From Felis catus (taxonomy: Eukaryota): 64,000 nucleotides of DNA. The notes under the pieces are model-generated. The model was given only the letters and a program-made list of their open reading frames with translations, did not search any database and had not been told where the DNA came from. Position numbers and translations under genes: made by a program. Shown here in pieces: positions 4,588 through 55,600 of this stretch. The number at the start of each line of letters is the position of its first letter. The first letter of the stretch is position 1. The stretch lies in NCBI RefSeq assembly GCF_018350175.1, contig NC_058368.1:83020001-83084000 (forward strand). Reading direction: 5' to 3'.

Positions 4588-4842
4588 TATGATCATTGTA
4601 ATGGATGCAGAAAAGACAATTGACAAAGTACAACATCCATTTATGATAAAGATCCTCAACAAAGAAGATTTAGAGAAAACATATCTCAATATAATAAAGT
4701 CCATATATGAAAAACTCACAGCTAATATTATCCTCAATGAGGGAAAAATGAAAGTTTTTTCTTTAAATTTAAGAATGATACAGGGATGTCCACTCTCACC
4801 ACTGTTATTTCACATCATACTGTGAGTCCTAGCCTCAGCTAT
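4588..4842 (+). mobile_element. Older LINE-1 reverse transcriptase fragment
   Basis: ORF 4589..4825 MIIVMDAEK...QGCPLSPLLF, more diverged than neighbouring young copies. Confidence 0.92.
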
Positions 4843-4865
4843 ACACACATATATACACACATATA

Positions 4866-5000
4866 TTAGCCACATGACAGGTGACAGGTAGTTTCTTATT
4901 GTAGTTTTATTTTGTATTTCCCTGATGATGAGTGATGTTGAGCATCTTTGCATTTGTCTGTTATCTATCAGCATGTCTTTTGAAACATTTCTATTCATGT
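4866..5000 (-). mobile_element. Older LINE-1 ORF2 C-terminal fragment
   Basis: ORF 4810..4998 contains MQRCSTSLIIREIQNKTT. Confidence 0.88.
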
Positions 5001-8000
5001 CTATTCATGTGTCAAGTAAGAAATTGCTGCCTCTGAGGTCAGAGAATTTTTTTTTCCTGCTTTCTCCACTAGGGTTTTGATGGTTTCCTGTCTCACGTTC
5101 ATGTCCTTCATCCGTTTTGAGTTTATTTTTGTAAACGATGTAAGAAAGTGGTCCAGTTTCATTCTTCTGCATGTTGCTGTCCAGTTCTTCCAGCACCATT
5201 TGTTAAAGAGACTGTCTTTTTTCCATTGGATATTCTTTCCTGCTTTTTCAAAGATTAGTTGAACATACTTTTGTGCATCTAATTCTGGGGTTTCTATCCT
5301 ATTCCATTGGTCTATGTGTCTGTTTTTTGTGCCAATACCATGCTGTCTTGATTATTACAGCTTTGAAGTAGAGGCTAAAGTTTGGGATTGTGCTGCCTCA
5401 CACTTTGGTCTTCTTACTCAATATTACTTTGGCTCTTTGGGGGTCTTTTGTGGTTCCACACAAATTTTAGGATGATTTGTTCTAGCTTCGAGAAGAGTGC
5501 TGGTGCAATTTTGATTGGGATTGCATTGAATGTTTAGATAGCTTTGGACAGTATTGACATTTTCACAATATTTATTCTTCCAACCCATGAACACAGAATG
5601 TTTTTCCATTTCTTTGTATCTTCTTCAGTTTCCTTCATACACTTTCTATGGTTTTCAGCATACAGATCTTTCACATCTTTGGTTAGGTTTATTCCTAGGT
5701 ATTTTATGATTGTTGCTGCAACTGTAAATGGGATTAGTTTATTTGTCTTTCTGTTGTTTCATCATTGGTGTATAAAAAGGCAAGTTATTTCTGTACATTA
5801 ACTTTTTATCCTGCGATTTTGCTGAATTCATGTAATCAGTTCTAGTAGACTTTTGGAGGAGTCTATTGGATTTTCCATGTATAAATATCATTGGCAAAAA
5901 GTGAAAGCTTAACTTCATCTTTGCCAGTTTGGATGCCTTTGATTTCCTTTTGTTGTCTGATTGATGATGCTAAAACTTCCAACACTATGTTAAACAACAG
6001 CGGTGGGAGTGGACATCCCTGTCGTGTTCTTGATCTCAGGGGGAAAGCTCTCAGTTTTTCCACCTTGAGGATGATATTAGCTGCGGGATTTTCATAAATG
6101 GCTTTTATGATGTTTAAGTATGTTCCTTGTATCCCGACTTTCTCGAGGGTTTTTATTAAGAAACTATGCTGAATTTTGTCAAATGATTTTTCTGCATTGA
6201 TTGATAGGATCATATGGTTCTTATCTTTTATTTTATTAATGTGATGTATCACATTGATTAATTTGTGAATGTTGAACCAGCCCATCATCCCTGGAATAAA
6301 TCCCACTTGATCATGGTGAATAATTTGTATCATATTCTGTTGAATTCGAATTGCTAGTATCTTGTTGAGAATTTTTGCATCCATATTCATCTCTCTTTTA
6401 TTGCTGGGTCTCTGGTTTGGGAATCAAAGTCATGCTGGCTTCATAGAATGAGTCTGGAAGTTTTCCTTCCTTTTCTATTTTTTTGGAACAGCTTGAGAAG
6501 GATAAGTATTATCTATGCTTTAAGTGTCTGGTAGAATTCCCCTAGGAAGTCATCTGGTCCAGGACTCTTATTTGTTGGAGATTTTTGATAACTGCTTCAA
6601 TTTCTTTGCTGGTTATAGGTCTGTTTAAGCTTTCTATTTCTTCCTATTTCAATTTTGGAAGTGTTTGGTTGCTTATGAATTTGTCCATTTCTTCCAGGTT
6701 GCCCAGTTTGTTGGTATATAATTTTCCATAGTATTCCCTGATAATTGCTTGTATTTCTGAGGGATTGGTTGTAATAATGCCATTTTCATTCATGATTTTA
6801 TCTATTTGGGTTCTGTCCCTTTTCCTTTTGAGGAGACTGTCTAGACGTTTATCAATTTTGTTTATTTTTTTAAAAAAACCAACTCTTGGTTTCATTGATC
6901 TGGTCTACATGTTTTTTTCGTTTCTGTATTGTTTATTTATGCTCTGATCATTCTTATCTTTCTTCTTCTGTTGGGTTTGGGGTGTCTTTGCTGTTGTGCT
7001 CTATTTCCTTTAGGTGTGCTATTAGATTTTGTATTTGGGATTTTTCTTGTTTCTTGAGATAAGCCTGTACTGCAATGTATTTTCCTCTCAGGACTGCCTC
7101 CGCTGCATCCCGAAGCACTTGGATTCTTATATTTTCATTTTCATTTGTTTCCATATTTTTTTTTCATTTCTTCTCTAATTGCCTGGTTGACCCATTCATT
7201 CTTTAGTAGAGTGTTCTTTAGCCTTCACGCTTGGGAGATTTTCCAGACTTTTTCCTGTGGTTGATTTCAAGCTTCAAAGCATTGTGGTCTGAAAGTGTGC
7301 ATTGTATGGTCTCAATTCTTTTACACTTATTAAGGGCTGTTTTGTGACCCAGTATGTGATCTATCTTGGAGAATGTTCCATGTGCACTTGAGAAGAAAGT
7401 ATATTCTGTTGCTTTAGGATGCTGAGTTCTAAATATATCTGTCAAGTCCATCTGACCCAATGTATCATTCAGAGCTCTTGTTTTTGTTTTTATTATTGAT
7501 CCTGTGTCTAGATGATCTATCCATTGTTGTAAGAGGTGTATTAATGTCCCCTGCAATTATCACATTCTTGTCAATAAGGTTGCTTATGTTTGTGATTGTT
7601 TTATATATTTGGGGGCTTCCATATTCAGCACATAGACATTTATAATTGTTAGCTCTTCCTGGTGGATAGAGCCTGTAATTATTCTATAATGCCCTTCTTC
7701 ATCTCTTGTTACAACCTTTAATTTAAAGTCTAGTTTGTCTGATATAAGTATGGCTACTCGAGCTCTCTTTTGACTTCCAGTAGCATTATAGATAGTTCTC
7801 CACACCCTCACTTTTAATCTCAAGGTATCCTCAGGTCTAAAATGAGTCTCTTGTAGACAGCAAATAGATGGGTCTTGTTTTTTTGTCCATTCGGATACCC
7901 TATGTCTTTTGGTTGGAGCATTTAGTCCATTTACATTGTGTTATTATTGAAAGATATGGTTTTAAAATTATTGTGATGTCTGTAGGTTTCATGCTTGTAG

Positions 8001-8049
8001 TGATGTCTCTGGTACTTTGTGGTCCTTGCAACATTTCACTCACAGAGTT

Positions 8050-8928
8050 CCCCTTAGGATCCTTATAAGGCTGGTTTAGTGGTGATGAATTCCTTCAGTT
8101 TTTGTTTGGGAAACCCTTTATCACTCCTTCTATTCTGAATGACAGACTTGCTGGATAAAGGATACTTGGCTGCATATTTTTTCTGTTCATCCTATTGAAT
8201 ATTTCCTGCCATTCCTTTCTGGCCTGCCAAATTTCAGTAGAGAGGTCTGCCACTACTCTTATGGGTCTATCTTTGTAACTTGGAGCCTTTTTTTCCCAAC
8301 TGCTTTCAGAGTTTTCTCTTTATCCTTGTATTTTGCCATTTCCAGTAGGATATGTCATGCAGAAGATCCTTTGAAGTTACGTATGAAGGGAGTTATTTGT
8401 GGCTTTTGGATTTCAATGCCTCTTTCCTTCCCCAGATCCTGGAAGGTCTCAGCTGTGATTTGTTCAGGCTCACCTCCAGCCCCTTACACTCTCTCTTCTT
8501 CTTCTGGAATTCTTATGATAAGGATATTGTTCCATTTGATTGCTTCACTTAGTTCTCTAATTCTCCCCTCATACTCCTGGAATTTTTTTTTATCTCTCTT
8601 TTTCTCAGCTTCCTCTTTTTCTGTAATTTTATCTTCTAGTTTACCTATTTTCTCCTCTGCCTCTTCAATCCATGATATGGCTGCCTCAATTTTATTCTGC
8701 ACCTTATTTATCGCAATTTTTAGTTCCTCATGACTGTTTTTTAGTCCCTTGATCTCTGTAGCAATAGATTCTGTGCTGCCCTCTATGCTGTTTTGAAGCC
8801 CAACGATTAATTTTATGATTATTATTCTAAATTATTGTTCTGTTATATTGCTTAAGTCATTTTTGATCAACATGTTGGCTGTCACTACTTCTGAGAATTT
8901 CTTTTGAGAAAATTTCTTGTTTTGTCAT
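8050..8928 (-). pseudogene. Disrupted L1 ORF1 (RNA-binding coiled-coil protein)
   Basis: ATG at 8928-8926 and coiled-coil heptads (IEEAEEKIGKLEDKITEKEEAEKKRDKK). Frameshifted. Confidence 0.9.
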
Positions 8929-9852
8929 TTTAGGTAGTCCATGTGGTAGCTCCAAACTGCATTGCACTTCCCCTGTGCTATTCAGAGTAACTTGTCTTGG
9001 TGGGTCAGGCCCAGTCAGACCTGATGTCTGCCCCCAGCCCACCACTGGGGCCACAGTCAGACTGGTGTGTACCTTATATTACCTTCTCCCAGAGGCAGGA
9101 CTCACTGTGGAGTGATGTGGCCCCTGTCTGGACTGCTTGCACACTGTCAGGCTTGTGATGCTGCTTCGATGGTATCTGGCCAATGGGGTATTAGACTGGG
9201 TGGATCTGCAAGGTGCACATGGGCGGGAGGGCCAGGATTAGCTAGCTTTCCCTTGGTGGTCCCCTGTGGGAGGGGTCCTGCAGCACTGGGAGGGAGGCAG
9301 GCCCATCAGAGGGATGGATCCACAGAAGCACAGTGTTGGTCATTTGCGCAGTGCAAGCAAGTTTGGTGAGGGAAACTTGTTCCCTTTGGAATTTCGGCTG
9401 GGGGATGGGAGAGAGAAATGGCACTGGCCAGCACCTTTGTTTCCATGCCAATCTGAGCTCTGTCCTTCTGGTGCTCAACTCTCCCTTCCTGCGTCTTCTC
9501 ATCCTCCCTGCTCTCTGAGAGCAGAGCCGTTGATTTTTAACATTCCAGATGTTAAGTCTCACTGGCTGTGAGAACTCACAGAGTCTAGCCCCTCCACTAT
9601 TGCAAGCCAGACTTCAGGGAACTCTGCCTTGCCAGGCGTGCTGCCCCTCCACTGCCCTGCTCCCTCCCACCAGTCCATGTAGCACGCACTGCTTCTCCAT
9701 CCTTCCTAGCCTCTTCTGTGGACCTCTTGTCTACAGTTGGCTCTGGAGAGTCCATTCTGCTAGTCTTATGGCTGCTTTCTGGGTTATTTAGGCCGATGTG
9801 GGTGGAATCTAAGTGATCAGCAAGACGAGGTGAGCCCAGCATCCCCTACACT

Positions 9853-9860
9853 GCCATCTT
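9853..9860 (-). promoter_or_regulatory. YY1-type motif AAGATGGC at the L1 5' terminus
   Basis: Same motif and position as the YY1 site known at mammalian L1 5' ends. Also present at 44723-44730. Confidence 0.7.
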
Positions 9861-9901
9861 CCCAGAATAGTGTCTCATTCTTAAAATTTTAAATTAATAT
9901 T

Positions 9902-32239: not shown

Positions 32240-34044
32240 AGTAAGTGGAGTATTAAAGTCCCCTACAATCCTGGTATTTTTATCTATATATTTATTTATG
32301 TGTGTGATTAATTGATTTATATATTTGGAAATTCCACATTGGGGGAATAAACATTTCCTGTTAGCTCTTTTTGAATGTTAGACCCCTTAATTATGATAGG
32401 ATGTCCTTCTTCATGTCTCATTACAGTCTTTGTTTTAAAATCTGGTTTCTCTGACATAAGTATGGCTACTCTGGCTTTCTTTTGGCATCCAGTAATGTGA
32501 TATTTCCATCACTTCACTTTCAAACTGCAGGTGTGCTTGGGTCTAAAATGAGTCTCTTGTATGCAGCATATAGACAGATTAAAAAAAATCCACTCTGCTA
32601 TCCTGTGTATTTTGATTGGGGCATTTAGTCCATTCACATTCATAGTGATTATTGAAAGATGTGGATTTAGTGTTATTGTGTTATCTCTAGGTTCTGTGCT
32701 TATGGTGATCTCCGGTCTTTTGTAGTCTTTGGTGCTCTCATATAGTCCCTATTAGAATCTCCTGCAGGGATAGTTTAGTGGTCATAAACCCATTTAGTTT
32801 ATGTTTGTCTAGGAAAGCCTTTATCTCTCCTTTTATTTAGAATGATAGCCTTGCTGGATAAAGGCTTCATGGTTGCTTTTTTTTTCTATTCTGCGTATTG
32901 AATATTTCCTGCCACTGCTTTGTGACCTGCAAGTTTCAGTGGATACGTCTGTTAACCTCATGTGTCCACCACCCTTTTGTTCCTAGCTGCTTTGAGAATT
33001 CTCTCTTTATCTTTGTAATTTGATACTTACACTATATGTCATGGTGTTAACCTGTTTTTGTAAATTTTGAGGGGGATTCTCTGTGCCTCTGGAACTTGGA
33101 TGTCTGTTTCCTTCCCCAGATTAGGGAAGTTCTCAGCTATAATTTGTTCAAATATATTTTCTGCCCCCTTTTCTCTCTCTTCTTCTTCTGGAACTCCTAT
33201 GATACAGATATTATTAGGTTTCATTGAGTCACTTAAGTCTCTAATTGTCCCCTTGTGATCTAGTAATTTCATTTCCCTCTTTTATTCAATTTCATTATTT
33301 TCAATAATTTTATCTTCTATTTCACCCATTCTCTCCTCTGTTTCCCCATCCTTTTCACTGTGTATAATTTACTTTGCATCTCATTTACCGCATTTCTTAA
33401 TTCATCATGACTACTACTTGGGTATCTGATATCTGCAGCAATCGATTCTCTGCTGTCATCTATGCTTTTTTCAAGCCCAGCCATTAGTCTTATAACTATT
33501 ATTCTAAATTCTTATTCAGATATATTGTTTATATCTGTCTTGAGCAATTCTCTGTCTGTCATTTCTTCCTGGAATTTCTTTTGAGGAGATTACTTCCATT
33601 TGTCATTTTGGCTAGTTTTATGTCTTTTATGAGTTTTAATAGATTGTTATATATCTTGCACCTGTGAGTACTACTATATTTAAAAGGGGTCATACACTGT
33701 CCAGGGTCTGACACTTTAGGAAGTGTTTTTGGAGTGGGTTGTGTACACTCTGTTGTTGCATCTTTGGCTGCTCTATCTCACTGCTCATAGTGGTGGATTG
33801 GACCTTCCACTAGATGTGCTTTGATACGTTTGTTGAAGTAACCCTGAAAAAGAAGAAAAAAGGGGAAGAGAAACCTTATCCCATACAAAAAACGAAATGA
33901 AAGTGGCAAGAAAAAAGACCAGGCAGGGAATCATGAAACTATAAGGCTTAATCCAGAGATAAAGAGAGGGAGGAAAATAAAGAAGAAGGAGAGGTGGAAA
34001 AGGTGTAAAAAATAGAGTAAAAATGCCTGATTAAACAAAAAACC

Positions 34045-34275
34045 AGAAGAGAGAAAGAAAGAAAGTTAAAGAAAGAAAGAAAGAAAGAAGAACGATAGAT
34101 ATAGATTAGATATAGATATAGATATAGATGATATAGATATAGATGATATAGATATACTAAAATTCCAAAGGGAAGAAAAGGAAAAAAAAAGGAGGAAAGT
34201 AAAAAGAAAAAAAAAGAAGGGAAAAGAGAAGAGAAGGAAAGAAGAGAGAAAATAATAATAGTAATAATAATAACA
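34045..34275 (+). repeat. Compound microsatellite (GAAA)n/(GATATA)n/(TAA)n in the L1 5'UTR
   Basis: Directly visible in the sequence. Confidence 0.9.
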
Positions 34276-35526
34276 AAACAGACTAACATACAAAATCACA
34301 GAACCATTGTCCATTGGTGCCTGGGACTGGTGGCTGTGTGGATCTGGAGGAGAGGCCATTTGGTTTGCTCAGCATCAGTCCCATTCTGGTAGATAGGCAG
34401 TTAGCAGGCATGGAAGAACTGGGTTTGGTGTAAGTAGGTCCCGCCTCCACTGGGGGCTGCTGTCCTGTTTTCTGAAACCCCACTGTGTTGGTGATGGGGA
34501 GAAAAATGTGACATCCCAACCTCTCTTCCCCACACCAGGTCTCTCAGACCATACTGTTCAGGCAGCAGAGTAGCGTGGACACTCAGCCTGTCTTGCTCCA
34601 CAGTCTCCCAGACCTCCTAGGTGCTTCAGCTGGGATTCAAAACCCATTGTCTTAAGGGATCCAAAACCATGTGGACCTGGTTCTGGGGTAGTGCTACTCC
34701 ATGAAGCTGACAAAGGGCCTGTGACTGGTGCTGGAAACCATTGTCCTTGGTGGAGCGAGGGCGGGGGGGGGGGGAGGTGGGCAATAAACTCTTCCCACAG
34801 TACTTGAGGGAAGGGACTGTTGTCTCCCAGTGTGCCCCTGAGATCACTACCTTGACCCAGGCCTGGCTTCCATCCCCCATGCACACGCAGGCAGGAGAAA
34901 GATGTGGTCAGGAGAAAGATGTGCATCCCTGAAAACTCCTGTTTTCAGCTGCTAAGGCTGTTTGCAAGTAGAAACTGGCTCTCTACGTATTTCTCATTCC
35001 CCAGTCCATGGTCTGGAGAGGTTTTTCTTTTGTCCAAATACAATACTACATTTCCACAGACTCTCTTTATCTTCTTGTCTCTCCACAAACAGGTACCTAC
35101 TCCTAAATATGTATTTATTAATTTTTCTTTATTCACGTTTACATAGCTTTGATAAATATACATTTTTATTTTTTTTTAGCTTTTATACCTCAAGTATTTA
35201 GATCATTTAGGTTTTAGTTTGCTAACTGACTTTTCTTTTTGATACAGTTCTATTCTTCCATAGGTGAAATTATCCCTATTGCATATTTTACCTCAGTTAC
35301 ATATTATTATAATAAAAATCAGCATGTGCTAAAATACTGTATTTATAGTTTCCCACTGGGTTTTCGCATGTGATGCTTTATAACTGAAATCAGTCATAAT
35401 TTACTGGGATCCTCATCCTTTGGAGTCATCTCCTTTCTTATTACTTAGTCATTAATTCAAATATTCATTAAATGCAAACTAAATGATAAACAATGCACTT
35501 TTTTAAAGGGGCTACAAGTGAGCACT

Positions 35527-38717: not shown

Positions 38718-39096
38718 GAATTTTAAAAGCAATAATAGAAAACAAACAAAAAATACATATAACAGAACCCCATAAAACGATTGATGGATTATTCAACATG
38801 CAACTTTCATGACAGAAACTACTGGTTTACAAGTTCCAAATACTGAAAGAACAACTTTCTTGTTTTTATGTTTAGGTTATACTCAGTTTTATTTATTTAT
38901 TTATTTATTTATTTTTTACTATATGAAATTTATTGTGAAATTGGTTTCCATACAACACCCAGTGCTCATCTCAAAAGGTGCTCTCTTCAATCCTCATCAC
39001 CTACCATCCCCTCCCTCCCACCCCCCCATTAACCTACAGTTTGTTTTCAGTTTTTAAGAGTCTTTTATGCTTTGGCTCTCTCCCACTCGGTTTCTG

Positions 39097-42000
39097 TTAA
39101 GTTTCACAGGATCCACATAAAAGTGAAAACATATGGTATCTGTCTTTCCCTGTATGGCTTCTTTCACTTAGCATCACACTTTCCAGTTCCATCCACGTGG
39201 CTACAAAGGGCCATATTTCATTCCTTCTCATTGCCACGTAGTACTCCATTGTGTATATACACCACAATTTCTTTATCCATTCATCAGTTGATGGACATTT
39301 AGGCTTGTTCCACAATTTGGCTATTGTTGAGAGTGCTGCTATAAACATTGGGGTACAAGTGCCCCTATGCATCAGTGATCCTGTATCCCTTGGGTAAATT
39401 CCTAGCAGTGCTAATTCTGGGTCATAGGGTAGGTCTATTTTTAATTTTTTGAGGAACCTCCACACTGTTTTCCAGACCGGCTTCACCAGTTTGCATTCCC
39501 ACCAACAGTGCAAAAGGGTTGCCGTTTTGCCACATCCTCTCCAGCATCTATAGTCTCCTGATTTGTTCATTTTGGCCATTCTGACTGGGAGGAGGTGATA
39601 TCTGAGTGTGGTTTTGATTTGCATTTCCCTGATGAGGAGCGACATTGAACATCTTTTCATGTGTCCGTTGGCCATTTGGATGTCTTCTTTAGAGAAGCGT
39701 CTATTTTTGTTTTCTGCCCATTTCTTCACTGGATTATTTGTTTTTCGGGTGTGGAGTTTGGTGAGCTCTTTATAGATTTTGGATACTAGCCCTTTGATAT
39801 GTCATTTGCAAATATCTTTTCCCATTCCGTTGGTTGCCTTTTAGTTTTGTGATTGTTTCCTTTGCTGTGCAGAAGCTTTTTATCTTCATGAGGTCCCAAT
39901 AGTTCATTTTTGTTTTTAATTCCCTTGCCTTTGGGGACGTGTCAAGTAAGAAATTGCTGCGGCTGAGGTCAGAGAGGTCTTTTCCTGCTTCATCCTCTAG
40001 GGTTTTGATGGTTTCCTGTCTCACATTCAGGTCCTTTTAAGTGGTCTAGATTAATTCTTCTGCATGTTGCTGTCCAGTTCTCCCAGCACCATTTGTTAAA
40101 GAGACCGTCTTTTTTCCATTGGATTTTCTTTCCTGCTTTGTCAAAGATGAGTTGGCCATACTTTTGTGGGTCCACTTTTGGAGGCTCTATTATATTCCAT
40201 TGTCTATGTGTCTGTTTTTTGTGCCAATACCATGCTGTCTTGATGATGACAGCTTTGTAGTAGAGGCTAAAGTCTGGGATTGTGATGCCTCCAGCTTTGG
40301 TCTTCTTCTTCAAAATTACTTTGGCTATTCGGGGCCTTTTGTGGTTCCATATTTAAGGATTGCTTGTTCTGGCTTTGATAAGAATGTTGGTGCAACTTTG
40401 ACTGGGATTGCATTGAATGTGTAGACAGCTTTGGGTAGTATTGGCATTTTGACAATATTTATTCTTCCAATCCATGAGCATGAAATGTTTTTCCATTTCT
40501 TTATATCTTATTCAATTTCCTTCATAAGCTTTCTATAGTTTTCAGCATACAGATCTTTTACATCTTTGGTTAGATTTATTCCTAGGTATTTTATGCTTCT
40601 TGGTGCAATTGTGAATGGGATCAGTTTCTTTATTTGTCTTTCTGTTGCTTCATTATTAGTGTATAAGAATGCAACTGATTTCTGTGCATTGATTTTGTAT
40701 CCTGCAAATTTGCTATATTCATATATTACTTCTAGCAGACTTTTGGTGGAGTCTATCGGATTTTCCATGTAAAATATCATGTCAGCTGCAAAAAGTGAAA
40801 GCTTGACTTCATCTTTGCCAATTTTGATTTCTTTGATTTCCTTTGTTGTCTGATTGCTGATGCTAGAACTTCCAACGCTATGCTAAACAACAATGGTGAG
40901 AGTGTACATCCCTGTTGTGTTCATGACCTCAGGGAGAAAGCTCTCAGTTTTTCCCCTTTGAGGATGATGTTAGCTGTGGGCTTTTCATAAATGGTTTTTA
41001 TGATCTTTAAGTATGTTCCTTGTATCCCGACTTTCTCGAGGGATTTTATTAATAAAGGATGCTGAATTTTGCCAAAGGCCTTTTCTGCATCGATTGACAG
41101 GATCATATTGCTCTTATCTTTTCTTTTATTAATGTGATGTATCACGTTGCTTGATTTGCGAATGTTGAACCAGCCCTGCATCCCAGGAATGAATCCCACT
41201 TGAGCATGGTTAATAATTCTTTTTATAAGCTGTTGAATTTGATTTGCTAGTATCTTATTGAGAATTTTTGCATCCATATTCATCAGGGATATTGGCCTGT
41301 ATTTCTCTTTTTTTGCTGGGTCTCTGGTTTAGGAATCAAAGTAATACTGGCTTCATAGAATGAGTCTGGAAGTTTTCCTTCCCTTTCTATTTTTGGAATA
41401 GCTTGAGAAGGACAGGTGTCATCTCTGCTTTAAATGTCTAGTAGAATTCCCCTGGGAAGCCATCTGGTCCTGGACTCTTATTTGTTGGGAGATTTTTGAT
41501 AACCAATTCAATTTCTTCGCTGGTTATGGGTCTGTTCAAGCCTTCTCTTTCCTCCTGATGGAGTTTTGGAAGTGTGTGGGTCCTTATGAATTTGTCCATT
41601 TCTTCCAGGTTGTCCAGTTTCTTGGCATATAATTTTTCATAGTATTCCCTGATAATTGCTTGTATTTCTGAGGGATTGGTTGTAATAATTCCATTTTCAT
41701 TCATGATTTTATCTATTTGGGTCATCTCCCTTTTCTTTTTGAGAAGCCTGGCTAGAGGTTTGTCAATTTTGTTTTTTTTTTTTTTCAAAAAACCAACTCT
41801 TGGTTTCCTTGATCTGCTCTGCAGTTTTTTTAGATTCTATATTGTTTATTTCTGCTCTGATCTTTATTATTTCTCTTCTTCTGCTGGGTTTGAGGTGTCT
41901 TTGCTGTTCTGCTTCTATTCCCTTTAGGTCTGCTGTTAGATTTTGTATTTGGGATTTTTCTTGTTTCTTGAGACAGGCCTGGATTGCAATGTATTTTCCT

Positions 42001-42889
42001 CTCAGGACTGCCTTTGCTGCATCCCAAAGCATTTGGATTGTTGTATTTTCATTTTCATTTGTTTCCATATATATATATTTAATTTCTTGTCTGATTGCCT
42101 GGTTGACCCATTCATTCTTTAGTAGGGTTGTCTTTAACCTCCAAGCTTTTGGAGTTTTTCCAAACTTCATCCTGTGGTTGATTTCAAGCTTCATAGCATT
42201 GTGGTCTGAAAGTATATATGGTATGATCTCAATTCTTGTATCCTTATGAAGGGCTGTTTTGTGACCCAGTATGTGATCTATCTTGCAGAAGGTTCCATGT
42301 GAACTCGATAAGAAAGTATATTCTGTTGCTTTGGGATGCAGAGTTCTAAATATATCTGTCAAGTCCATCTGAACCAGTGTGTCATTCAGGGCCCTTGTTC
42401 CTTTATTGACCATGTGTCCAGGTGATCTATCCATTGTTGTAAGTGGGGTATTAAAGTCCCCTGCAGTTACCACATTCTTGTCAATAAGGTTGCCTATGTT
42501 TGTAATTGTTTTATATATTTGGGGGCTCCTGTGTTCGGCACATAGACATTTATAACTGTTAGCTCTTCTTGATGGATAGACACTGTAATTATTATATAAT
42601 GCCCCTCTTCATCCCATGTTACAGCCTTTAATTTAAAGTCTAGTTTGTCTGATATAAGTATGGCTACTCCAGCTTTCTTTTGACTTCCAGTAGCATGATA
42701 AATAGTTCTCCATCCCCTCAATTTCAATCTGAAATTGTCCTCAAGTCTAAAATGAGTCTCTTGTAGACAATAAATAGATAGATCTTGTTTTTTTATCCAT
42801 TCTGATACCGTATGTCTTTTGGTTGGCGCATTTAGTCCATTTACATTCAGTGTTATTATAGAAAGATATGGGTTTAGAGTCATTGTGAT
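39097..42889 (-). pseudogene. Disrupted L1 ORF2 (endonuclease, reverse transcriptase, Cys-rich domain)
   Basis: Consecutive ORFs: SIITLNVNGLN/LQETH/GDFNTPL/SDHNA (EN), [16 protein letters not shown] (RT), CWRGCG..HCWWEC. Multiple frameshifts. Confidence 0.96.
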
Positions 42890-42933
42890 GTCCGTAGGTT
42901 TCATGCTTGTAGCGATGTCTCTGGTACTTTGGC

Positions 42934-43819
42934 TCACAAGATCCCCCTTAGGATCTCTTGCAAGGCTGGTTTAGTGGTGAAAAATTCCTTCAGTTTTTGT
43001 TTGTTTGGGAAGATCTTTATCTCTCCTTCTATTCTAAATGACAGAGTTGCTGGATAGAGGATTCTTGGCTGCATATTTTTTCTGTTCATCACATTGAAGA
43101 TCTGCCATTCCTTTCTGGTCTGCCAAGTTTCAGTAGAGAGATCAGTCACGAGTCTAATAGGTCTCCCTTTTATGTTAGGGCACGTTTATCCCTTTCTGCT
43201 TTCAGAATTTTCTCTTTATCCTTGTATTTGCCAGTTTCACTATGATATGTCGTGCAGATCGATTCAAGTTATGTCTGAAGGGAGTTCTTTGTGCCTCTTG
43301 GATTTCAATGCATTTTTCCTTCCCCAGATCTGGGAAGTTATCAGCTATGATTTCTTCAAGTTCACCTTCAGCACCTTTCCCTCTCTCTTCCTCCTCTGGA
43401 ATACGAATTATGCGTAGATTATTTCTCTTTAGTGCATCACTTAGTTCTCTAATTTTCCCCTCATACTCCTGGATTTTTTTATCTCTCTTTTTCTCAGCTT
43501 CTTCTTTTTCCATAAATTTATCTTCTAGTTCACCTATTCTCTCCTCTGCCTCTTCAATATGAGCCGTGGTCATCTCCATTTTAGTTTGCAGCTCATTAAT
43601 AGCATTTTTTAGCTCCTCCTGGCTGTTCCTTAGTCCCTTGATCTCTGTAGCAAGAGATTCTCTGCTGTCCTTTATACTGTTTTCAAGCCCAGTGATTAAT
43701 TTTATGACTACCATTCTAAATTCACTTTCTGTTATATTGTTTAAATCGTTTTTGATCAGTTCATTAGCTGTCGTTATTTCCTGGACTTTTTTTTTAGGGG
43801 AATTCTTCCATTTTGTCCT
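42934..43819 (-). pseudogene. Disrupted L1 ORF1
   Basis: ORFs 43202..43858 and 42934..43149. The start codon reads AGG (43819-43817) where paralogues have ATG. Frameshifted. Confidence 0.95.
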
Positions 43820-44722
43820 TTTGGATAGTCCCTGGAATGGTGTGGAACTGCAGGGCACTTCCCCTGTGCTGTCTTGAATAATGCGTTGGTGGGCAGGGCT
43901 GCAGTCAAACCTGATGTCTGCCCCATCCCACCGCTGGGGCCACAGTCAGACTGGTGTGTACCTTCTCTTCCCCTTTCTTAGGGCGGGATCCACTGTGGGG
44001 TGGCGTGGCCTGTCTGGGCTACTTGCACATTGCCAGGCTTGTGGTTCTGGGGATCTGGCGTATTAGCTGGGGTGGATTGGAAAGCTGCACAGGGGCAGGC
44101 GGGGCAGGCTCAGCTCACTTTTCTTTAGGAGATCTGATTCAGGATAGGCCTTGTGGCCCCCAGAGGGAGTGAGACCTGCCACCGGAGGGATGGATCCACA
44201 GAAGCACAGCCTTGGGTGTTTGTGAGGTGCAAGCAAGTTCACTGGCAGGAACTGGTTCCCGTTTGAGATTTCGGCTGGGTGATGGGCGAGGGAGATGGTG
44301 CTGGCGAGTGCTTTTGTTCCCCACCAAACTGTGCTCTGTCATCTGGGGCTCATCAACTCTCCCTCCCCTTGTCCTCCAGCCCTCCTGCTCTCCTAGCAGA
44401 GCTGATAACTTATAACCTTCCAGATGTTAAGTCCCACTTGCTGTCAGAACAAACTTTGCCCGGCCTCTCAGCTTTGCAAGCCAGAGTCAGGGGCTCTGCT
44501 TTGCTAGCGAGCTGCCCCTCTGCCCTTGCTCCCACCCGCCAGTCCATGTAGTGCGCAGCACCTCTCCATCCTTCCTACCCTCTTCCGTGGGCCTCTCGTG
44601 TATGCTTGGTTCCGGAGAATCTTTTCTGCTAGTCTTCTGGTGGCTTTCTGGGTTATTTAGGCAGATGTGGGTGGAGTCTAAGTGATCAGCAGGACACGGT
44701 GAGTCCAGTGTCCTCCTACACT

Positions 44723-44730
44723 GCCATCTT
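44723..44730 (-). promoter_or_regulatory. YY1-type motif AAGATGGC at the L1 5' terminus
   Basis: Located about 10 nt inside the TSD-defined 5' end. Confidence 0.7.
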
Positions 44731-45746
44731 CCCGCCTTCTGAAAGAACAACTTCAACAAAGAATGCTATACCAAAGTTTCCCTTAAGAAATGAAAAAAGA
44801 TAGACAAACGCTGAGTGAAATCTTCACCACCAGACCACCAATACTTCATTTAATACTCATGGTAAGCTCAAAGGAAAAAATCTGTGGTAGTAGTATAAAA
44901 GAGCATGATGAAGTCAAAGCATACTGCCCCACATGACACCCAAATACAGAAATAGAAGGATAAATTACAAGAAAAAAAAGGAATACAAAAGAAGAATACA
45001 ATTAACAAAATGCCAACAATAATTGCTCATTTAACAATATTTTCATTTGTAAATGAATTCAATCATCTAATCAAAAATACAACATGGTTTAAAGATTTGA
45101 AAAAAAGCAAGGGCTAATAATATGCTGCTTACAAGAGACTGACTATATTCTTACAGATACACATAGACCAAGAGAGGAGGGAGATATTTAAAGCATGTGG
45201 GAAGAAAAATGAAGGATGGCTATACTTTTATCAGAAATAATAAACTTAAAACTAAAAATATTGGAGACAAATAAATTCTTTAAATAAATATAAATGGGAC
45301 AATTAATCAAGAAAATAATTGTAATAGTTATACATGCAAGAATGCAACAATAGAGCACTTAAATAAACAAAGCTAAAAAAGTAACACAGGTAAAAGGAGA
45401 AATAAAACCCAACAAAATGATAGGAAGTTTAATACCACGTCCCCAACACTCAAAAGATCATCCAGACAAAAAAGAGATAAAAATAAGAATACCATGGATT
45501 TAAAAAACAGTGTACACAAAAGAACCTAAAATATATATACAAAATACTGAAAATAAGTGGATAAACATCTTTCTCAAGTACACATGATGTATTTTCTAGG
45601 ATATACATATGTTGGATCATAAAAGAAATCTCAGCAAAGTCAAGAAGACTGACATACCAGGTGTCTTCTGTGAATTCAGTGTTATGAAACTAGAATTGAA
45701 TAACAAGAAGAAAACTGAAAAATTCACACTGATTATTTTTTAAAAG

Positions 45747-45886
45747 GAGGGGAGGGTGGGTGATGGGTAATGAGGAGGGCACCTTTTGGGATGAGCACTG
45801 GGTGTTGTATGGAAACCAATTTGACAATAAATTTCATATATTGAAAAAAATGAATAAATATTAACAAAAAATTTAAAAAAAATAAA
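45747..45886 (+). mobile_element. Tiny young LINE-1 3' end
   Basis: GGGAGGGTGGGTGATGGG..CCAATTTGACAATAAATTTCATATATTG followed by an A tail. Confidence 0.93.
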
Positions 45887-46577
45887 TAAAAGTCTTCTAA
45901 ACAAATGATGATGTAATGAAATAAGACAAATTTTGAGAAAAGTATTTTGAAATAAATTAAATGGAAGCACAAAATACCAACCTTATGGGATGAAGAAAAA
46001 TCATTTTTAAGTGTAAGTTTGGAGCAATACATGCCTACATTAAAATACAAGAAAGATTTCAAATAAACACACTAACACTATGCCTTAAGGAACTAGAAAG
46101 GAAGAACATAATGAAAATAAAGTTAGCAGAAAAAAGGTAAATAAGATTAGAACAAAAACAAATAAAACAGAAAATGGAAAAACAGGGTTCACTTGACTAG
46201 CAATTATTTCTTTGAAAACATAAACAAAATTGACATTAACCTCAACTAATCAAGGAAAAAAGTGGATCCAAATCAATAGCATTATAAATAAAAAAGGAGA
46301 TATTACAAATGATACCTTTTCAATATACAAAGGATTATAAGATGAAAAGGTCAGAAGAGATACTATGAACAATGAAATGCCAACAAACTAGACAACCAAC
46401 AAATGGACAAATGCTAAGAAACATACAAACTAACATGACTACATAGTAATGTAATAAAATGTCTACATAGATATGTTATAAGGAGTTTCAGTTAGTATTC
46501 CAACATCTCTAAAGCTGAGTGAAGACCAGATAGTTTCACTGTTGAATTTTACCCAACATTTTAAGAAAAAATAAATC

Positions 46578-46735
46578 TGAAATTTGTTCACAAATCCAGA
46601 AGCTCTCGAAGCCCTATATGATTGGCAATTTTATGGAGGCTACATCACACAGGCGTGATTGATTATTAACTTCATTTCCAGTTCCTTTATCCTTCCTATA
46701 GAATGCAGGGCAGAAATTTCTAATCGTCTAACTGA
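46578..46735 (-). mobile_element. Internal fragment of a MER21-like LTR abutting the L1 5' end
   Basis: CCAGAAGCTCTC..TTTTATGGAGGCTACATCACACAGGCGTGATTGATTATTAACT matches the recalled MER21 sequence in antisense. No LTR termini are present. Confidence 0.65.
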
Positions 46736-48304
46736 GGGGCCAACATGGCAGAGAAGTAAGGGGTTCCATATTCCTGCGTCTCTCAAACAAAAAAGCATTG
46801 AAGCCAAGAGACTTTCAACCCCAAGAGACTGGGAGGAAAAGAGACTGAGTCTACCAGGGAGACACTGGGAAAACCTGACAGGCCGTAGCTGGGTGATTTC
46901 AAACTGGGGGAGATAAAACAGGTCATTTATCATGGAGGGGAGGGATCCCCTTCTGCAGAGAGACAAAGGGAAGAGAGAAGGTGGCTGGGAAAGTGTAGGA
47001 CTGTGTCTGGACAAAAGCAAAACCTCGGACTGGGATGGAGAAGGAGCCCATCTCTTACTGCCAGGCTTTTTTGGACTAGGGCCCTGTTTGCGCATCTGGG
47101 GAAGAAGGGCACCACACCGAGGTTTGGTGGTAGGTAGGGGTGCAGTCTGCAGTAGGAGAAAGCTATCCCCTCCCTAGACTACTGTGGGGAAAAGCCTGCC
47201 ACATATCTGGTGGTGCCTAGTGGCCCTTCCCCAGTACCTGGCTACACAGAGTGGGAGTTTGAATCCCAGCCAAGCACCTGGGCATGGGAGTTGGTGGAGC
47301 AAGACAGCCTCATCTACACCCCCCACACAGTGAGGACAGCTCAAACTGAGCGATTTGGGACACAGGTCCCTGGGGAAGAGACTAAGGGTTCGCCATTTTT
47401 TTTTGCCACCACCACCAAGGCGGGGCCTCAGGGATTGGTCCTCAGGGCCCACAGTGGAGGCAGGACCTGCATATACCAACCATGCCCCTCTGCACCTGGT
47501 GACTGTAAATCTACTGGAGTGGGATAGATACTGAGGAACCAGACTGCCCCATCTTCCAGACCAGCTTTGCTGCATTGTCTGGATGAATTCTAGGGCAATT
47601 CTTGTTACTTAGGTATTTCTTCCTTCCTTTTCTCCTTATCCTTCCCTCCTGTAGCCTGGTTACTCTAGTTGTTGGTTTTTTTAAGCAGACACGTTTAATC
47701 CATTCTCTTGATACATGTTCTATACTCCTTTCCTTTTCTTTCTCTCTCTCTGGAATAATCAAGTTATATAGTTTCTCTGTCTGGGTAACTAACTTCTTTT
47801 CTTTTTCCCCACCTCCTTTATTATTTTCCTTTTTCTACTTCCAGATTAAGCTCTTTAGTCTCTCAGCATGGTCATTGTTTATTTTTTCTTTTTCCCTGCC
47901 CCTGTAATTTCTCTCTTTATATGTGCTAGTCCATCAGCACTATCTCCACCATGTTCTTGTAACTGGTGTTTCTGGTTTTATGCTTTTGGACTTGTTTGTT
48001 TGTTTGTTTGCTTGATTCATTTGTTTGAGTGTGTGTTTTTGTTTCCTATTTGCCTGGTTTTTTTTCCTTTCCAGGGCTACTTCAAGGAACAAATCAAAGC
48101 CCACCCGGTGGAGGGTCCAAAACATCACTACAAGTAAAGAAATAGAATAACCAAAATCACAACAACAGAAATGAAGTAACACTCTCCAAAAAACACTTCG
48201 TGAAGGGCCTGGCCATGGACAGTGTACAGTAATATAGCAGTGCTTGCAGGTGCAGAGTACATAACAAACTTTTAAAACTCACTAGGGACAGAAAACTAGC
48301 CAAA

Positions 48305-49190
48305 ATGAAGACATGGAAGAATTCTCATGAAAAGAAATTCCAGGAAGAAGTGACAGATAAAGAATTGATCAAAAACATATTTAAGCAACATAACTGAACA
48401 AGAATTTAGAATAGCAGTCATAAGATTAATTTCTGTCTTGAAAAAAGCATAGAAGACAGTAGAGAATCTATTGCTGCAGAGATCAAGGAACTAAAAAAAT
48501 AGTCATGATGAATTAAAAACTGTTGTAAATGAAGTGCAACATAAAATGGAGGTGGCCACCGCATGGATTGAAGAGGAAGAGGGGAGAATAGATGAATTAG
48601 AAGATAAAATTATTGAAAAAGAGGAAGCTGAGAAAAAGAGAGTTAGAAAAATTCAGGATCACGAGGAGAGAAGTAGAGAACTAAGTGATTCAATCAAACA
48701 GAACAATATCTGTATCATCGGTTTTCCAGAGGAAGAATAAGAGAGAGAAAGGGTCTGAAGGTGTTCTTGAACAAATCATTGCTGAGAACTTCCCTGATCT
48801 GGGAAAGGAAAAAAGCATTTAAATCCAAGAGGCACAGAGAACTCTCTTCAGATGTAACTTCAATCAATGACATATCATACTGAAACTGGCAAAATACAAG
48901 GAAAAAGAGAAAACTTGAAAGCAGCTAGGGATAAACAGGCTATAACTTACAAAGGTAGACCCATAAGAGTAGTGGCAGACCTGTCTACTGAAATTCAGCA
49001 GGCCGGAAAGGAATGGCAGGAAATCTTCAGTGTGATGAAAAGGAAAAATATGCAGCCCAGAATCCTTTATCCAGCAAGACTGTCATTCAGAATATAAAAA
49101 GAGATAAAGGTCTTCCCAAAGGAACAAAAACTGAAGGAATTCATGACCACTAAACCAGTCCTACAAGAGATCCTAAGAGGGACTCTGTGA
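48305..49190 (+). pseudogene. Disrupted L1 ORF1
   Basis: ORFs 48534..48740 and 48867..49097 (ADLSTE..KEWQEIF..QPRILYPARLSFRI). Confidence 0.93.
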
Positions 49191-50571
49191 GTGAAATATT
49201 GTAAGGACCACAAAGGACCAGAGACATCACTACAAGCAAGAAACCTACAGATGACACAATGACTCTAAACCTATATCTTTCAACAATAACACTGAATGTA
49301 AATGAACCAATACTCCAATCAAAAGACATAGGATATGAGAATGGATTAAACAAAAAAGCAAGATACATACATTTATTGTCTACAACAGACCCATTTTAGA
49401 TCTCAGGACATCTTCAGATTGAAAGTGAGGGAAAGGAGAAATATTTATCATGTTACTGGAAGTCAAAGGAGAGCTGTAGTAGCCATACTCATATCAGACA
49501 AATTAGGCTTTAAATTAGATTGTACAAGAGATGAAGAAGGGCATTATATAATAATCACTTGGTCTATCTTTCAGGAAGAACTAACAATTATAAATGTCTG
49601 TGCACTGAATTCCAGAGCACACAAATATAAAAAAAATAATCACAAACATACCAACCTTATTAGTAAGAATGTGGTAATTGCAGGGACTTTAATACTCCAC
49701 TTACAACAATGGACATATCTAGACAGAGAATCAGTGAAGAAACAATGGGCATGAATGATACATTGGATCAGATGGACTTTACTGATATATTTAGAACTCT
49801 ACATCCTAAAACAGCAGAATATATTTTCTTCTCAAGTGCACAAGGAACATTCTCCAAGATAGATCACATACTGGGTCACAAAAAAGCCCTCGATAAATGT
49901 AAAAGAATTGAGATGATACCATGCACACTCTGAGATCACAATACTGTGAAACTTGAAATCAACAACAGGAAAAAATCTGGAAAACCTCCAAAAGCATGGA
50001 GGTTAAAGAACATCCTAATAAAGAATGAATGGGTCAACCAGGCAATTAGAGAATAAATTTAAAAATATATATTTGGAAACAAAAGAAAATGAAAACACAA
50101 CAATGCAACCCCTTGAGATGTAGCAAAAGAGGAAAATACATTGCAATCCAGGCTATCTCAAGAAACAAGAAAAATCCCCAATATGAATATAACAGCACAT
50201 CTAAAGGAACTAGAAGCAGAAAAGCAAATATACACCAAACCCAGCAGAAGAGAAATAAAGATTAGAGCAAAAATCAACAATATAGAATCCAAAAAAAAAT
50301 CCACAGACACAACAACAACAAAACCCCCACAAAAAAACCAGTAAAACAGATCAATGAAACTAAGAGATTGTTTTTAAAATAAACATAATTGATAAACCTC
50401 TATCTAGGCTTCTCAACAAGAAAAGAGAGATGACCCAAATAGATAAAATCATGAAAGAAAGTGAAATTATTAGAAACAATCCCTCAGAAATACAAGCTAT
50501 TATCAAAGAAAACTATGGATAATTACATGCCAACAAACTGGACTACCTGGCAGAAGTGGACAAACTCTAAA

Positions 50572-50584
50572 TACGCACATATGT

Positions 50585-50615
<31 letters not shown>

Positions 50616-50621
50616 CACACA
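50572..50621 (+). repeat. (CA)n expansion within L1 ORF2
   Basis: Paralogous copies carry only a short CACACAC at this position. Confidence 0.92.
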
Positions 50622-52273
50622 CTACCAAAACTAAAAGAGGAAGAAATAGAGAATTTGAACAGACCCATAACTAGTGAAATATTGAATCAGTTTTCAAAAA
50701 TCTCCCAACAAATAAGAGTCCAGGACCAGATAGCTTCCCTGGGGAATTCGACTGGATATTTCAAGCAGAGATAATACCTATCCTTCTCATGTGGTTCCAA
50801 AAAAATAGAAATGGAAGGAAAACTTTTGGATTCATTCTATGAAGCCAGCATTACTTTGATTCCCAAACCAGATAGAGACCCATCAAAAAATTGAATTATA
50901 GGCCAATATCCATAATGAATATGGATGCAAAAATTCTCAACAAGATATTAGCAAATCTAATTCAACAGCATATAAAAAGAATTATTCACCATGATCAAGT
51001 GGGATTCATTCCTGATCTTCAGGACTGGTTCGATATTAGCAAATCAATCAATATGATACATCACATTAATAAAAGAAAGGATAAGAACCATATGATCCTG
51101 TCAGAGATGCATAAAAAGCATTTGACAAAATACAACATCTTTCCTTAATAAAAAACCCTGAGAAAGTCGGGATAGAAGGATCATACCTAAACATCATAAA
51201 ATCCATTCATGAAAAGCCTACAGCTAATATAATCCTCAATGGGGAAAAACTGAGAGCTTTCCCCCTGATATCAGGGACACTACAGGAATGTCCATTCTCA
51301 CCGCTGTTGTTTAACATAGTGTTGGAAGTTCTAGCATCAGCAATAATACAACAAAAGGAAATCAAAGGCATCAAAATTGGCAAAGATGAAGTCAACCTCT
51401 AGCTTTTTGCAGATGACAGCATACCATACATGGAAAACCCAACAGACTCCACCAAAAGTCTACTAGAACTGATACATGAATTCAGCATAGTCTCAAGGTA
51501 CAAAACTAATGTACATAAATCAGTTGCATATTTGTACACAATGAAGCAACTGAAAGAGAAATAAAAAAACTTATCCCACTTACAATTGCACCAAGAACCA
51601 TAAAACACCTAGGAATAAACCTAACCAAAGATGTAAAAGATCTGTATGCTGAAAACTATAGAAAGTTTATGAGGGAAATTGAAGTAGACATAAAGAAAGG
51701 GGAAAACATTCCATGCTCATGGTTTGAAAGAGTAAATATTGTTAAAATGTCAATACATCCAAAGCAATGTATGCATTCAATGCAATTCCAATCAAAATTG
51801 CACCACCATTCTTCTCAAAGCTAGAACAAACAATCCTATAATTTGTATGAAATCACAAAAGACCCAGAATAGCCAAAATAATATTGAGGATGAAAACAAA
51901 GTGGCAGACATCACCATCCCAGACATTAGCCTCTACTACAAAGCTGTACTAATGAAGACAGTATGGTACTGGCACAAAAACAGACACATAGAACAATGGA
52001 ATTGAATAGACAGCCCAGAATTGGACCCACAAATGTATGGCCCACTAATCTTTGACAAAGCAGGAAAGAGTATCAAATGGAAATAAGACAATCTCTTTAA
52101 TAAATGGTGATTGGAGAACTGGACAGCAACATGAAGAATGAAACTAGACCACTTTCTTACACCATTCACAAAAAGAAACTCAAAGTGGATGAGAGACCTG
52201 AATGTGAGACAGGAAACCATCAAAACCCTAGAGGAGAAAGCAGGAAACACCCTCTTTGATCTCAGCTGCAGCA

Positions 52274-52669
52274 TTTATTTTAATATGAAATTTATTGTCA
52301 AATTGTTTTCCATACAACACCCAGTGCTCTTCCCTACAGGTGCCCTCCTCAATTCCCATCACCCACTTTCCCCTCCCTCCCATTACCCATCAACCCTCAG
52401 TTTATTCTCAGTTTTAAGGGCCTCTTATGGTTTGCCTCCCTCCCTCTTTAACTTTTTTTCCCCTCCCCTCCCCCATGGTCTTCTGTTAAGTTTCTCAGGA
52501 TCCACATAAGAGTGAAAACATATGGTATGTTTCTCTCTATGATTTATTTCACTTAGCATATCACTCTCCAGTTCCATCCACTTTGCTAAATAAAGCCATA
52601 TTTCATTCTTTCTCATTGCCAAGTAGTATTCCTTTGTATATATAAACCACAATTTTTTTTCCATTCATC
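52274..52669 (-). mobile_element. Young LINE-1 3' end (about 400 bp) inserted antisense into the full-length L1
   Basis: Homologous to 26435-26827. Host ORF2 resumes at 52670. Confidence 0.95.
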
Positions 52670-55600
52670 TTACATGACACATATCCAAAGGCAAGGGAAT
52701 TGAAAGTAAAAATGAACTATTGGGACCTAATAAAGATAAAAAGCTTCTGAACTGCAAAAGAAACAATCAACAACACTAAAAGTCAACCAATGGAATGGGA
52801 TTACATATTTGAAAATGATATATCGCATAAAGGGCTAATATTCAAAATCTATAAAGAACTCACCAAACTCCACACTGAAAAACAAATAATCCAGTGAAGA
52901 AATGGGCATAAGACATGAATAGACACTTTTCCAAAGAAGACATCCATATGGTCAACAGACACATGAAATGATGCTCAGTGTCACTCATCATTAGAGAAAT
53001 ACCAATCAAAGCCACACTGTGATACCACCTCATGCCTGTCAGAGTGGCTACAATGAACAAATCAGGAGACTATAGATGGTGGTGAGAATGTGGAGAAACA
53101 CTGCACTGTTGCACTGTTGGTGGAATGCAAACTAGTGCAGCCACTCTGGAAAACAGTGTGGAGGTTTCTCTAAAAAAAATAAAAATAAAAATAGAACTAC
53201 CCTATGACCCAGCAGTAGCATTGCTAGGAATTTACCCAAGGGATACAGGAGTGCTGATGCATAGGGCTGCATGAACTCCAATGTTTATAGCAGCACTTTC
53301 AACAATAGCTAAATCATGGAAAGAGCCTAATGTTCATCAACTGACGAATGGATAATGAAGATATTGTTTATATATAGAATGGAATACTAATTGGCAATGA
53401 GGAAGAATGAAATCTGTCCATTTGAAGCAATATGGATGGAACTGGAGGGTATTATGCTAAGTGAAATAAGTCATTGAGAGAAAGAGATACCATATGTTTT
53501 CACTCATATATGGATCTTGAGAAACTTAACAGAAGAATATGGGGAGGGGAAGGGGGGAAAGTTACATACAGATAAGGAGGGAGGCAAACCACAAGAGACT
53601 CTTAAATACAGAAAACAAACTTAGGGTTGTTAGGGGGTAAGGGAGAGGGGAAAATGGGCAATGGGCATTGAGGAGGGCACCTGTTGGGATGAGCCCTGGG
53701 TGTTGTATGGAAGCCAATTTGACATTATATTTTTAAAAAAGAGAATAAATCCTAATATTTCTCCATCTCTTCAAGAAAATAAAAAAGGAGATAAGACTCC
53801 TAAAATCATTTTATGAGACCCACCTAACTTTGAAACTAAAGACAGAAAAGGACATTACCGGGAAAGAAAACTACAGACAATATCCTTAATGAATGTCAGT
53901 GCAAAAATTCTACAACAGCAACAATAACAACAACAAAATTTGCTTTTTAATTCACAGCACATTAAAATAATTATTCACTATGATCAAGTGCCATTCATAT
54001 GGGATATCAATATTATTGCAAATGGCAAGATTTAATTTTTTTTTTTTTTTATGGCTGAGCAAAATTCCATCAGAAATACAAACTTCTCGTTTATTCAGTC
54101 ATCAGTCAATGGACGTTTTTGGTATTTCCACAATTTGGCCATTTTAGATAATGCTGCTGTATAAAGATAAGGGTGCATTTTCCCTTAGAATTACCGTTTT
54201 TATATTCCTTTGGTAATTAATTAGTAGTGTAATTGCTTAATCAAATGGTAGATCTATTTTTAACTTTTTTGAAACCTTCATACTGTTTTGCAGTTTACAT
54301 TTCTAACAATAGTGCAGGGATTTTCCTCTTTCTACACCTCCTCACCAACACCTGTTATTTCTTGTGTTGTTGGTTTTAGCCCTTCTGACTAGTGAGAAAT
54401 GATATCTCATTGTATTTTTTATTTGAATTTACTACATGATCATCATATTGAGTATCTTTCCATGGGTCTTCTGGCCATCTGTATGTCTTCTTTGTAAAAA
54501 TATTTATTTATCTATGCTGCCCATTTTTAATTGGATTATTTGAGTTTGGGGTGCTGAGTTTAATAGTTCTTTATACATTTTAGATAATAACCATTTACCA
54601 GATTTGTAATTTGAAAATATCTTCTCCCAGTGCATAGGTTGCTTTCAGTTTTGTTGTTTCCTTCACTGTGCACAAGTTTTTAAATTTGATGTAGTCCCAA
54701 TAGTTAATTTTTTATTTTGTTTTATTGCCTCAGCAGATGCATCTAGAAATAATTTGCTACTGCCAAAAGGGACAAATTTATTGCCTATGTTCTCCTCCAG
54801 AATTTTTACCATTTCAAATCTCACATTTAGATTTTTAATCTATTTGGGCTTCACTTTTTTGTATGGTGTAAGTTTTCCAGTTTCATTCTTTTGAATGTTT
54901 CTGTCCAATTTTTCCAAACCATTGGGTGAAGAGATGGTCTTTTTCCATTGAATATTATTTCCTGTTTTGTCAAAGTTTAATTGATTATATTGGTGGGGAT
55001 TCATTTCTGGATTTTCTTTTCTGTTCCATTGATCTATGTGTCTGTTTTGTGCCACTTCCATACTGTCTTGATCCCTATAGCTTTATAGTATAGCTTGAAG
55101 TCTGCAGTTGTGATGTCCCCAACTTTGCTTTTCTTTTTCAAGTTTCCTTTGACTATCTCCATCTTTTGTGATTCTGTACAAATTTTAGGATTTTTTTTGT
55201 TCTAGCTCTGTGAACAGTGCTGTTGGAATTTTGATAAGGAATGCATTGAATGTGCAGGTTGCTTTGGAAAGTGTAGACGTTTTTACAATATCTGTTTTGA
55301 TCCATGAGTATTGAATGTCTTTCCATTTCTTAGAGTTATCTGCAATTTTTTCATCAATGTTGCATAGTTTTCAGGGCACAGTTATTTTATCTCTTTGGTT
55401 AGGATTATTCCTAGATTTCTTATGTTTTTTTTTTGGTGCAATGTGGTGCAACATGGGATTTATTCCTTAATTTCTCTTCTGCTGATTCATTATTGGTCTA
55501 TAGAAATGAAACACATTTATGTACATTGATTTTTTTTATCCTGTGACTTTACTGAGTTTGTTTATCAGATACAGGAGTTTTTTGGGGGAGCCTTTCAGGT

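Follow-up and report, generated by a model that had tools for sequence, protein, structure and literature searches.

An ancient 5' chimeric L1 insertion in the cat genome, with 156 bp of non-L1 sequence ahead of a full-length element

The 64-kb stretch of cat DNA analyzed here (the window) is very dense in L1, with several nested generations on both strands. Near 46 to 54 kb, the ORF2 relic of an ancient L1 is interrupted by an insert in which a 156-bp non-L1 segment (the tag) precedes a full-length, decayed L1 spanning 46734 to about 53738. The features of this region, in window coordinates, are as follows.

45900..46577, plus strand: left part of the ancient host L1, an ORF2 relic whose start is approximate; pieces 63-82% identical to L1 ORF2s of the window.
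46559..46566, plus strand: L1 endonuclease-type site TTTT/AAGA, with the nick before 46563, identified from the sequence and the TT/AAAA motif as in PMC13174262.
46563..46577, plus strand: 5' copy of the target-site duplication (TSD), 13-15 bp, decayed, 12 of 15 positions equal to 53737-53751; the host is continuous across it.
46577..46580, plus strand: first copy of CTGA, straddling the left junction of the tag.
46578..46733, no strand assigned: the non-L1 tag, a probable dispersed-repeat fragment of 156 bp; no L1 match in the window, partial matches elsewhere over 46610-46702.
46732..46735, plus strand: second copy of CTGA, straddling the junction of tag and L1.
46734..48304, plus strand: 5' UTR of the focal L1, from the common start of its subfamily, marked by a depth step and heterogeneous loose ends at 46734; related pieces at 34343-35083.
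48305..49190, plus strand: ORF1 relic with stops and frameshifts, ends placed by eye; PF17490 (E 1.2e-10) and PF02994 (E 3.7e-4).
49259..53520, plus strand: ORF2 relic with stops, frameshifts and an interruption, ends placed by eye; PF00078 RVT_1 (E 4.8e-10 and 4.1e-6).
52273..52669 (approximate), minus strand: a later 5'-truncated L1 3' end of about 400 bp inside the focal ORF2, seen as a gap in the BLAST alignment and as an inverted match to the 3' ends of L1s, with no clear TSD.
53521..53738, plus strand: L1 3' UTR and short decayed A tail, matching five other L1 3' ends of the window.
53737..53751, plus strand: 3' copy of the TSD, matching the 5' copy; the host resumes directly after it.
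53752..54010, plus strand: ancient host L1, resumed part; end approximate.

The endonuclease-type site reads TTTTAAGA (46559-46566), and the 5' copy of the TSD, AAGAAAAAATAAATC (46563-46577), begins at the nick site. It includes the 8-mer AATAAATC (46570-46577), which is found again at 53744-53751; in an alternative alignment, 46563-46577 and 53739-53751 share 12 matches with a 2-base gap. By itself, the 8-mer is common in the window (five copies per strand), and we took the repeat as a TSD rather than a chance match because the host ORF2 is continuous and the repeat reaches the nick site. When 46578-53751 was removed by script, the host ORF2 aligned across the junction with six other ORF2 copies of the window at 63-65% identity, reading on unbroken and without deletion. 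Host continuity and the TSD together imply that a single insert, lodged in an older L1, fills the whole interval between the two copies. A preceding interpretation made from the letters alone (the sequence-only reading) had proposed just this single insertion between the two 8-mers, as well as the endonuclease site, and both proposals were borne out.

The insert thus shows the marks of L1 target-primed reverse transcription, namely a TSD, an endonuclease-type nick site, and a 3' UTR with an A tail. It also shows that of a 5' chimera, i.e., non-L1 sequence, absent from the normal 5' end of the subfamily, that separates the 5' TSD from the start of the L1. Most likely, a single event brought in both tag and L1. 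That the tag was a pre-existing flank behind which the L1 inserted was ruled out, as the TSD matches the host side. In addition, the last 25 bases of the tag are not repeated at the 3' end (local score of 7, versus 13 for the last 25 bases of the host), hence no tag was already in place when the L1 landed. An assembly artifact was discarded too, since 97-98% of 68 sampled words of 46300-47000 were present in 20 public runs from 10 studies (14 of the 20 flagged as possible sources), and the stretch is therefore real. Just left of the host L1 lies another L1 3' end of roughly 107 bp with an A tail (45746-45852, plus strand).

The focal L1 is full length, with a 5' UTR from the subfamily start, ORF1, and ORF2. 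Its ORF2 is about 80% identical to the long L1s at 5022-8938 and 39952-43829, and three of its seven peptide pieces match L1 ORF1 or reverse transcriptase families, the other four matching nothing. Over about 790 bases of ORF2 it differs by 13.8-14.6% from three other long copies, and 49 of the 573 sites in the ORF2 comparison with three long copies are private to it. Among the raw reads placed on the focal region, 488 of 669 were under 90% alike. This copy is old and long dead. An (AC)n microsatellite (50585-50622) has grown within its ORF2.

To locate the L1 start, reads of four runs (24 public runs were matched, all of a single organism) were aligned at 80% likeness, with a raw coverage of about 0.78x for an assumed genome size of 2.5 Gb. 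Copy-equivalents were calculated from raw-read depth, and contig depths were not taken as copy numbers. The depth was 0.13 over 46703-46733 versus 88 over 46734-46764, so that about 113 copy-equivalents begin at 46734. The loose read ends before this position agreed with one another at only 0.45-0.47 and were A-rich, ending in a G-rich run; many siblings have a few extra G-rich bases there, which the focal copy does not. The depth step and the heterogeneous sibling flanks indicate that the tag does not belong to the normal 5' UTR of the subfamily, so that one of the two outcomes that would have refuted the sequence-only reading did not occur. That reading was right in placing a non-L1 segment before the L1, but its boundaries (non-L1 sequence at 46578-46735, L1 from 46736) have to be moved, the start being 46734 and the tag 46578-46733. 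Within the window, an older L1 at about 32240-35100 (minus strand) has a related 5' UTR, pieces of which are 70-79% like that of the focal element, but without the first 200 or so bases, and two other long L1s, at about 38900-44740 and 2740-9865 (both minus strand), have a GC-rich type of 5' UTR unlike that of the focal element. No sibling in the window is therefore informative on the focal 5' end. At least two 5' UTR lineages are thus present in the window.

Compared with the whole window, the tag had no L1 similarity, in agreement with its description as non-L1, and no second copy (best non-self match of 29 bp, E 0.065-0.093). Planted copies of the tag at 15, 22, and 30% divergence were recovered in 40, 40, and 39 of 40 trials, respectively. 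With this power (119/120), a nearby template within the 64 kb is ruled out, and the template within about 5 kb that characterizes proximal repair-mediated duplications was not found in the window. Beyond it, the tag core (46610-46702) had short partial matches in all four runs, not resolved individually, and its raw-read depth peaked at 5, versus about 0.78 per single copy, while 46579-46609 had a depth of 0. These values suggest that the core belongs to a dispersed repeat.

The tag may be a fragment of a MER21-type LTR in antisense, with a putative resemblance in sequence to the MER21C/MER21B LTRs. A likeness to the CCAAT/TATA region of such an LTR had also been suggested. The minus strand has a single exact CCAAT (46621-46625), located downstream of the TATA-like CATAAAA (inside 46629-46636); the textbook order of CCAAT followed by TATA is therefore absent, and a promoter is not visible from the letters alone. 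An Rfam search of the tag gave no matches up to E 1. Scans with a tag pattern found 38 loci in viral contigs, all motif-only chance matches, none in prokaryote genomes, and zero and one loci in two metagenome scans, the one being a bacterial operon (L039). Against plasmids and phages there were three matches and one match, respectively, at chance level (E 0.4-0.5), and the L1-start pattern was found in neither genomes nor viral contigs. No MER21 sequence was retrieved when papers and the PMC12129452 supplements were searched for motifs. In the available text of PMC12129452 and PMC1781489, MER21C is Boreoeutherian-wide and MER21B Euarchontoglires-specific, and a carnivore copy would consequently be of the MER21C type. 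MER21C can serve as a promoter (GPR1-AS), and antisense promoter activity of MER21 is not described in those portions of the two papers.

At the same four runs, coverage (about 0.78x), and likeness (80%), neither a donor nor a tagged sibling was detected, although over most of 46300-46949 the contigs of the locus itself were absent as well. No read or contig of these runs bridged tag and L1; a single tagged copy would be missed with P 0.63. For ten or more tagged copies, the probability of escaping detection in the raw reads, if these are unfiltered, falls to 0.009, which makes a large tagged subfamily unlikely. One donor or a few tagged siblings are compatible with this search.

The insert is a real, ancient 5' chimeric L1 of an already described kind. 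The closest parallel is among the 17 human mRNA/lncRNA-L1 5' chimeras of PMC13174262 (Cell Genomics 2026), where the L1PA5/MAP3K13 chimera likewise combines, in one event, a full-length L1, 153 bp of foreign 5' sequence, a 15-bp TSD, and an endonuclease motif. However, the tags in the part of that work available to us map to spliced gene exons, whereas the cat tag, apparently a piece of a repeat, has no mapped source and lacks an evident splice junction, and MER21 is not mentioned in the available text and supplements. A second parallel is the human source L1 at 8q21.11, with 22 5' transductions, in which an upstream start produces a 5' tag that identifies the source (PMC12350158, 10.1101/2024.04.18.590093). 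There, source, promoter, and splicing are proven and siblings are many, while the cat insert is ancient and has neither source nor sibling in the four low-coverage runs. Repair-mediated duplications and templated insertions (PMC2671141, 10.1101/2024.08.27.596794, PMC11702581) resemble the cat tag in being short captured pieces of similar size with microhomology at the break, but their templates are usually close by. For dogs, the accessible part of PMC13141329 shows only 3' transductions, and a literature search blind to the prime sign and to most subscription journals returned no paper on felid L1 5' transductions or MER21-tagged L1s.

The best explanation, to which we assign a probability of about 0.5, is an unspliced read-through 5' transduction from a source L1 in a decayed LTR-type repeat. 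The source L1 would have sat inside such a repeat, and its transcription would have begun ahead of its own promoter, so that 156 or more flanking bases were copied along. One RNA would have served as template for both tag and L1, and a single target-primed reverse transcription would have inserted the tag and the full-length L1 together; the 5' end of the tag would be either the transcription start or a truncation point. We favor read-through because the L1 is complete and no template is nearby. The TSD and endonuclease site enclose both parts, and the element is complete from 46734; 5' transductions go with near full-length L1s (PMC13174262), and the upstream-promoter model is drawn in PMC6035798. 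On the other side, neither donor nor tagged sibling was seen in the four low-coverage runs, which is a weak objection. Such events are also rare: long-read data on humans gave 49 among 4,429 polymorphic L1 insertions (10.1101/2024.04.18.590093), and there were none in the available part of an earlier primate set (PMC4862182). Moreover, 15 of the 17 published human 5' chimeras lack a source L1 in the gene from which the tag came (PMC13174262). The extra G-rich bases before the start of many siblings, missing from the focal copy, also speak against read-through, as does the CTGA at both ends of the tag (p 0.01-0.05), which fits microhomology capture better.

The two CTGA copies, which straddle both tag junctions, are out of register by one base; the sequence-only reading had noted neither them nor the antisense L1 fragment at about 52273-52669. 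When random 156-mers were placed between the true flanks, a run of at least 4 was found in exact register in 264 of 19,816 cases, within 1 base in 634 of 19,818, and within 2 bases in 1,069 of 19,805, giving a chance of 1.3-5.4% depending on the registers allowed. The repeat is marginal and was noticed post hoc; it would suit microhomology-assisted capture or, with lower probability, an insertion made later.

Identical anatomy can be obtained in trans, by template switch, twin priming, trans-splicing, or repair capture, and capture in trans, all its forms together, is overall nearly as good an explanation as read-through. Its leading form, somewhat unlikely on its own, is a chimera made at the RNA level, i.e., by a reverse transcriptase jump from the 5' end of the L1 RNA to a repeat RNA, by twin priming, or by RNAs joined before insertion, with no need for a donor L1 beside the repeat. 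Template jumping by ORF2p has been shown in vitro (PMC10830420), and the published 5' chimeras are mostly without a cis source, their antisense pieces being ascribed to twin priming (PMC13174262). However, chimeras of repeat RNA and L1 mostly involve 5'-truncated L1s (PMC13174262), and the focal L1 is complete. No splice-type junction is evident by eye, the tag ending in ACT, and the CTGA at the two junctions, which would suit this mechanism, is marginal and out of register.

Capture of DNA during repair of the 5' junction, in which the broken end would have used a distant part of the genome as template for 156 bases before being joined to the L1 cDNA, is less probable again. The tag is of the typical size of repair-mediated duplications (mean of 162 bp), and 312 of 1,136 of these have distant donors, but templates lie mostly within 5 kb (PMC2671141) and the window holds none. 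Templated genomic pieces do occur at L1 integration sites (10.1101/2024.08.27.596794, PMC11702581), and the 4-bp repeat at the tag ends would fit; in tumors, the templates of such insertions are mostly within 15 bp (10.1101/2024.08.27.596794).

A later, separate insertion of the tag with a 4-bp CTGA duplication into the junction of TSD and L1 start is very improbable. Minus the tag and one CTGA, the TSD does join the L1 start with one extra base, but the tag, which has no tail or termini, would need to have hit a 7-kb element almost exactly at that junction, one or two bases off at most, and the repeat arises by chance in 1-5%. Least tenable is a minor L1 lineage that had stably adopted the tag as its 5' end and produced many tagged copies, since, even if L1s are known to gain new 5' ends through such chimeras (PMC13174262), the 113 or so copy-equivalents start at 46734 with unrelated flanks, no reads bridge the junction, and at least 10 tagged copies would hardly have been missed in unfiltered reads.

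Returning to read-through transduction, an antisense LTR promoter as the driver of the donor L1, also put forward in the sequence-only reading, has no support. It requires the first base of the tag to be the start site, and the 5' end of the tag may equally be a truncation point. The boldest version, in which a decayed MER21-type LTR acted as an antisense germ-line promoter in an ancestral carnivore and drove the L1 inside it, leaving a small tagged family that names the source locus tens of millions of years later, is a long shot. If a donor were found, the insert would become a traceable ancient 5' transduction in a carnivore and would exemplify transcription entering an L1 from an old LTR region, the presumed way in which L1s acquire new 5' ends. 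At present, it adds one case to the known 5' chimeras, in a dead element that shows no sign of function.

Two minor observations concern the other L1s. The long L1 at 2740-9865 (minus strand) appears to be without a piece near the 3806-5022 junctions. In siblings of the focal 5' UTR (46734-47200), numerous internal stretches of 66-164 bases are skipped, and many of these skips end close to 46931 or 47136; they may reflect variation of the 5' UTR within the lineage or breaks in the alignment.
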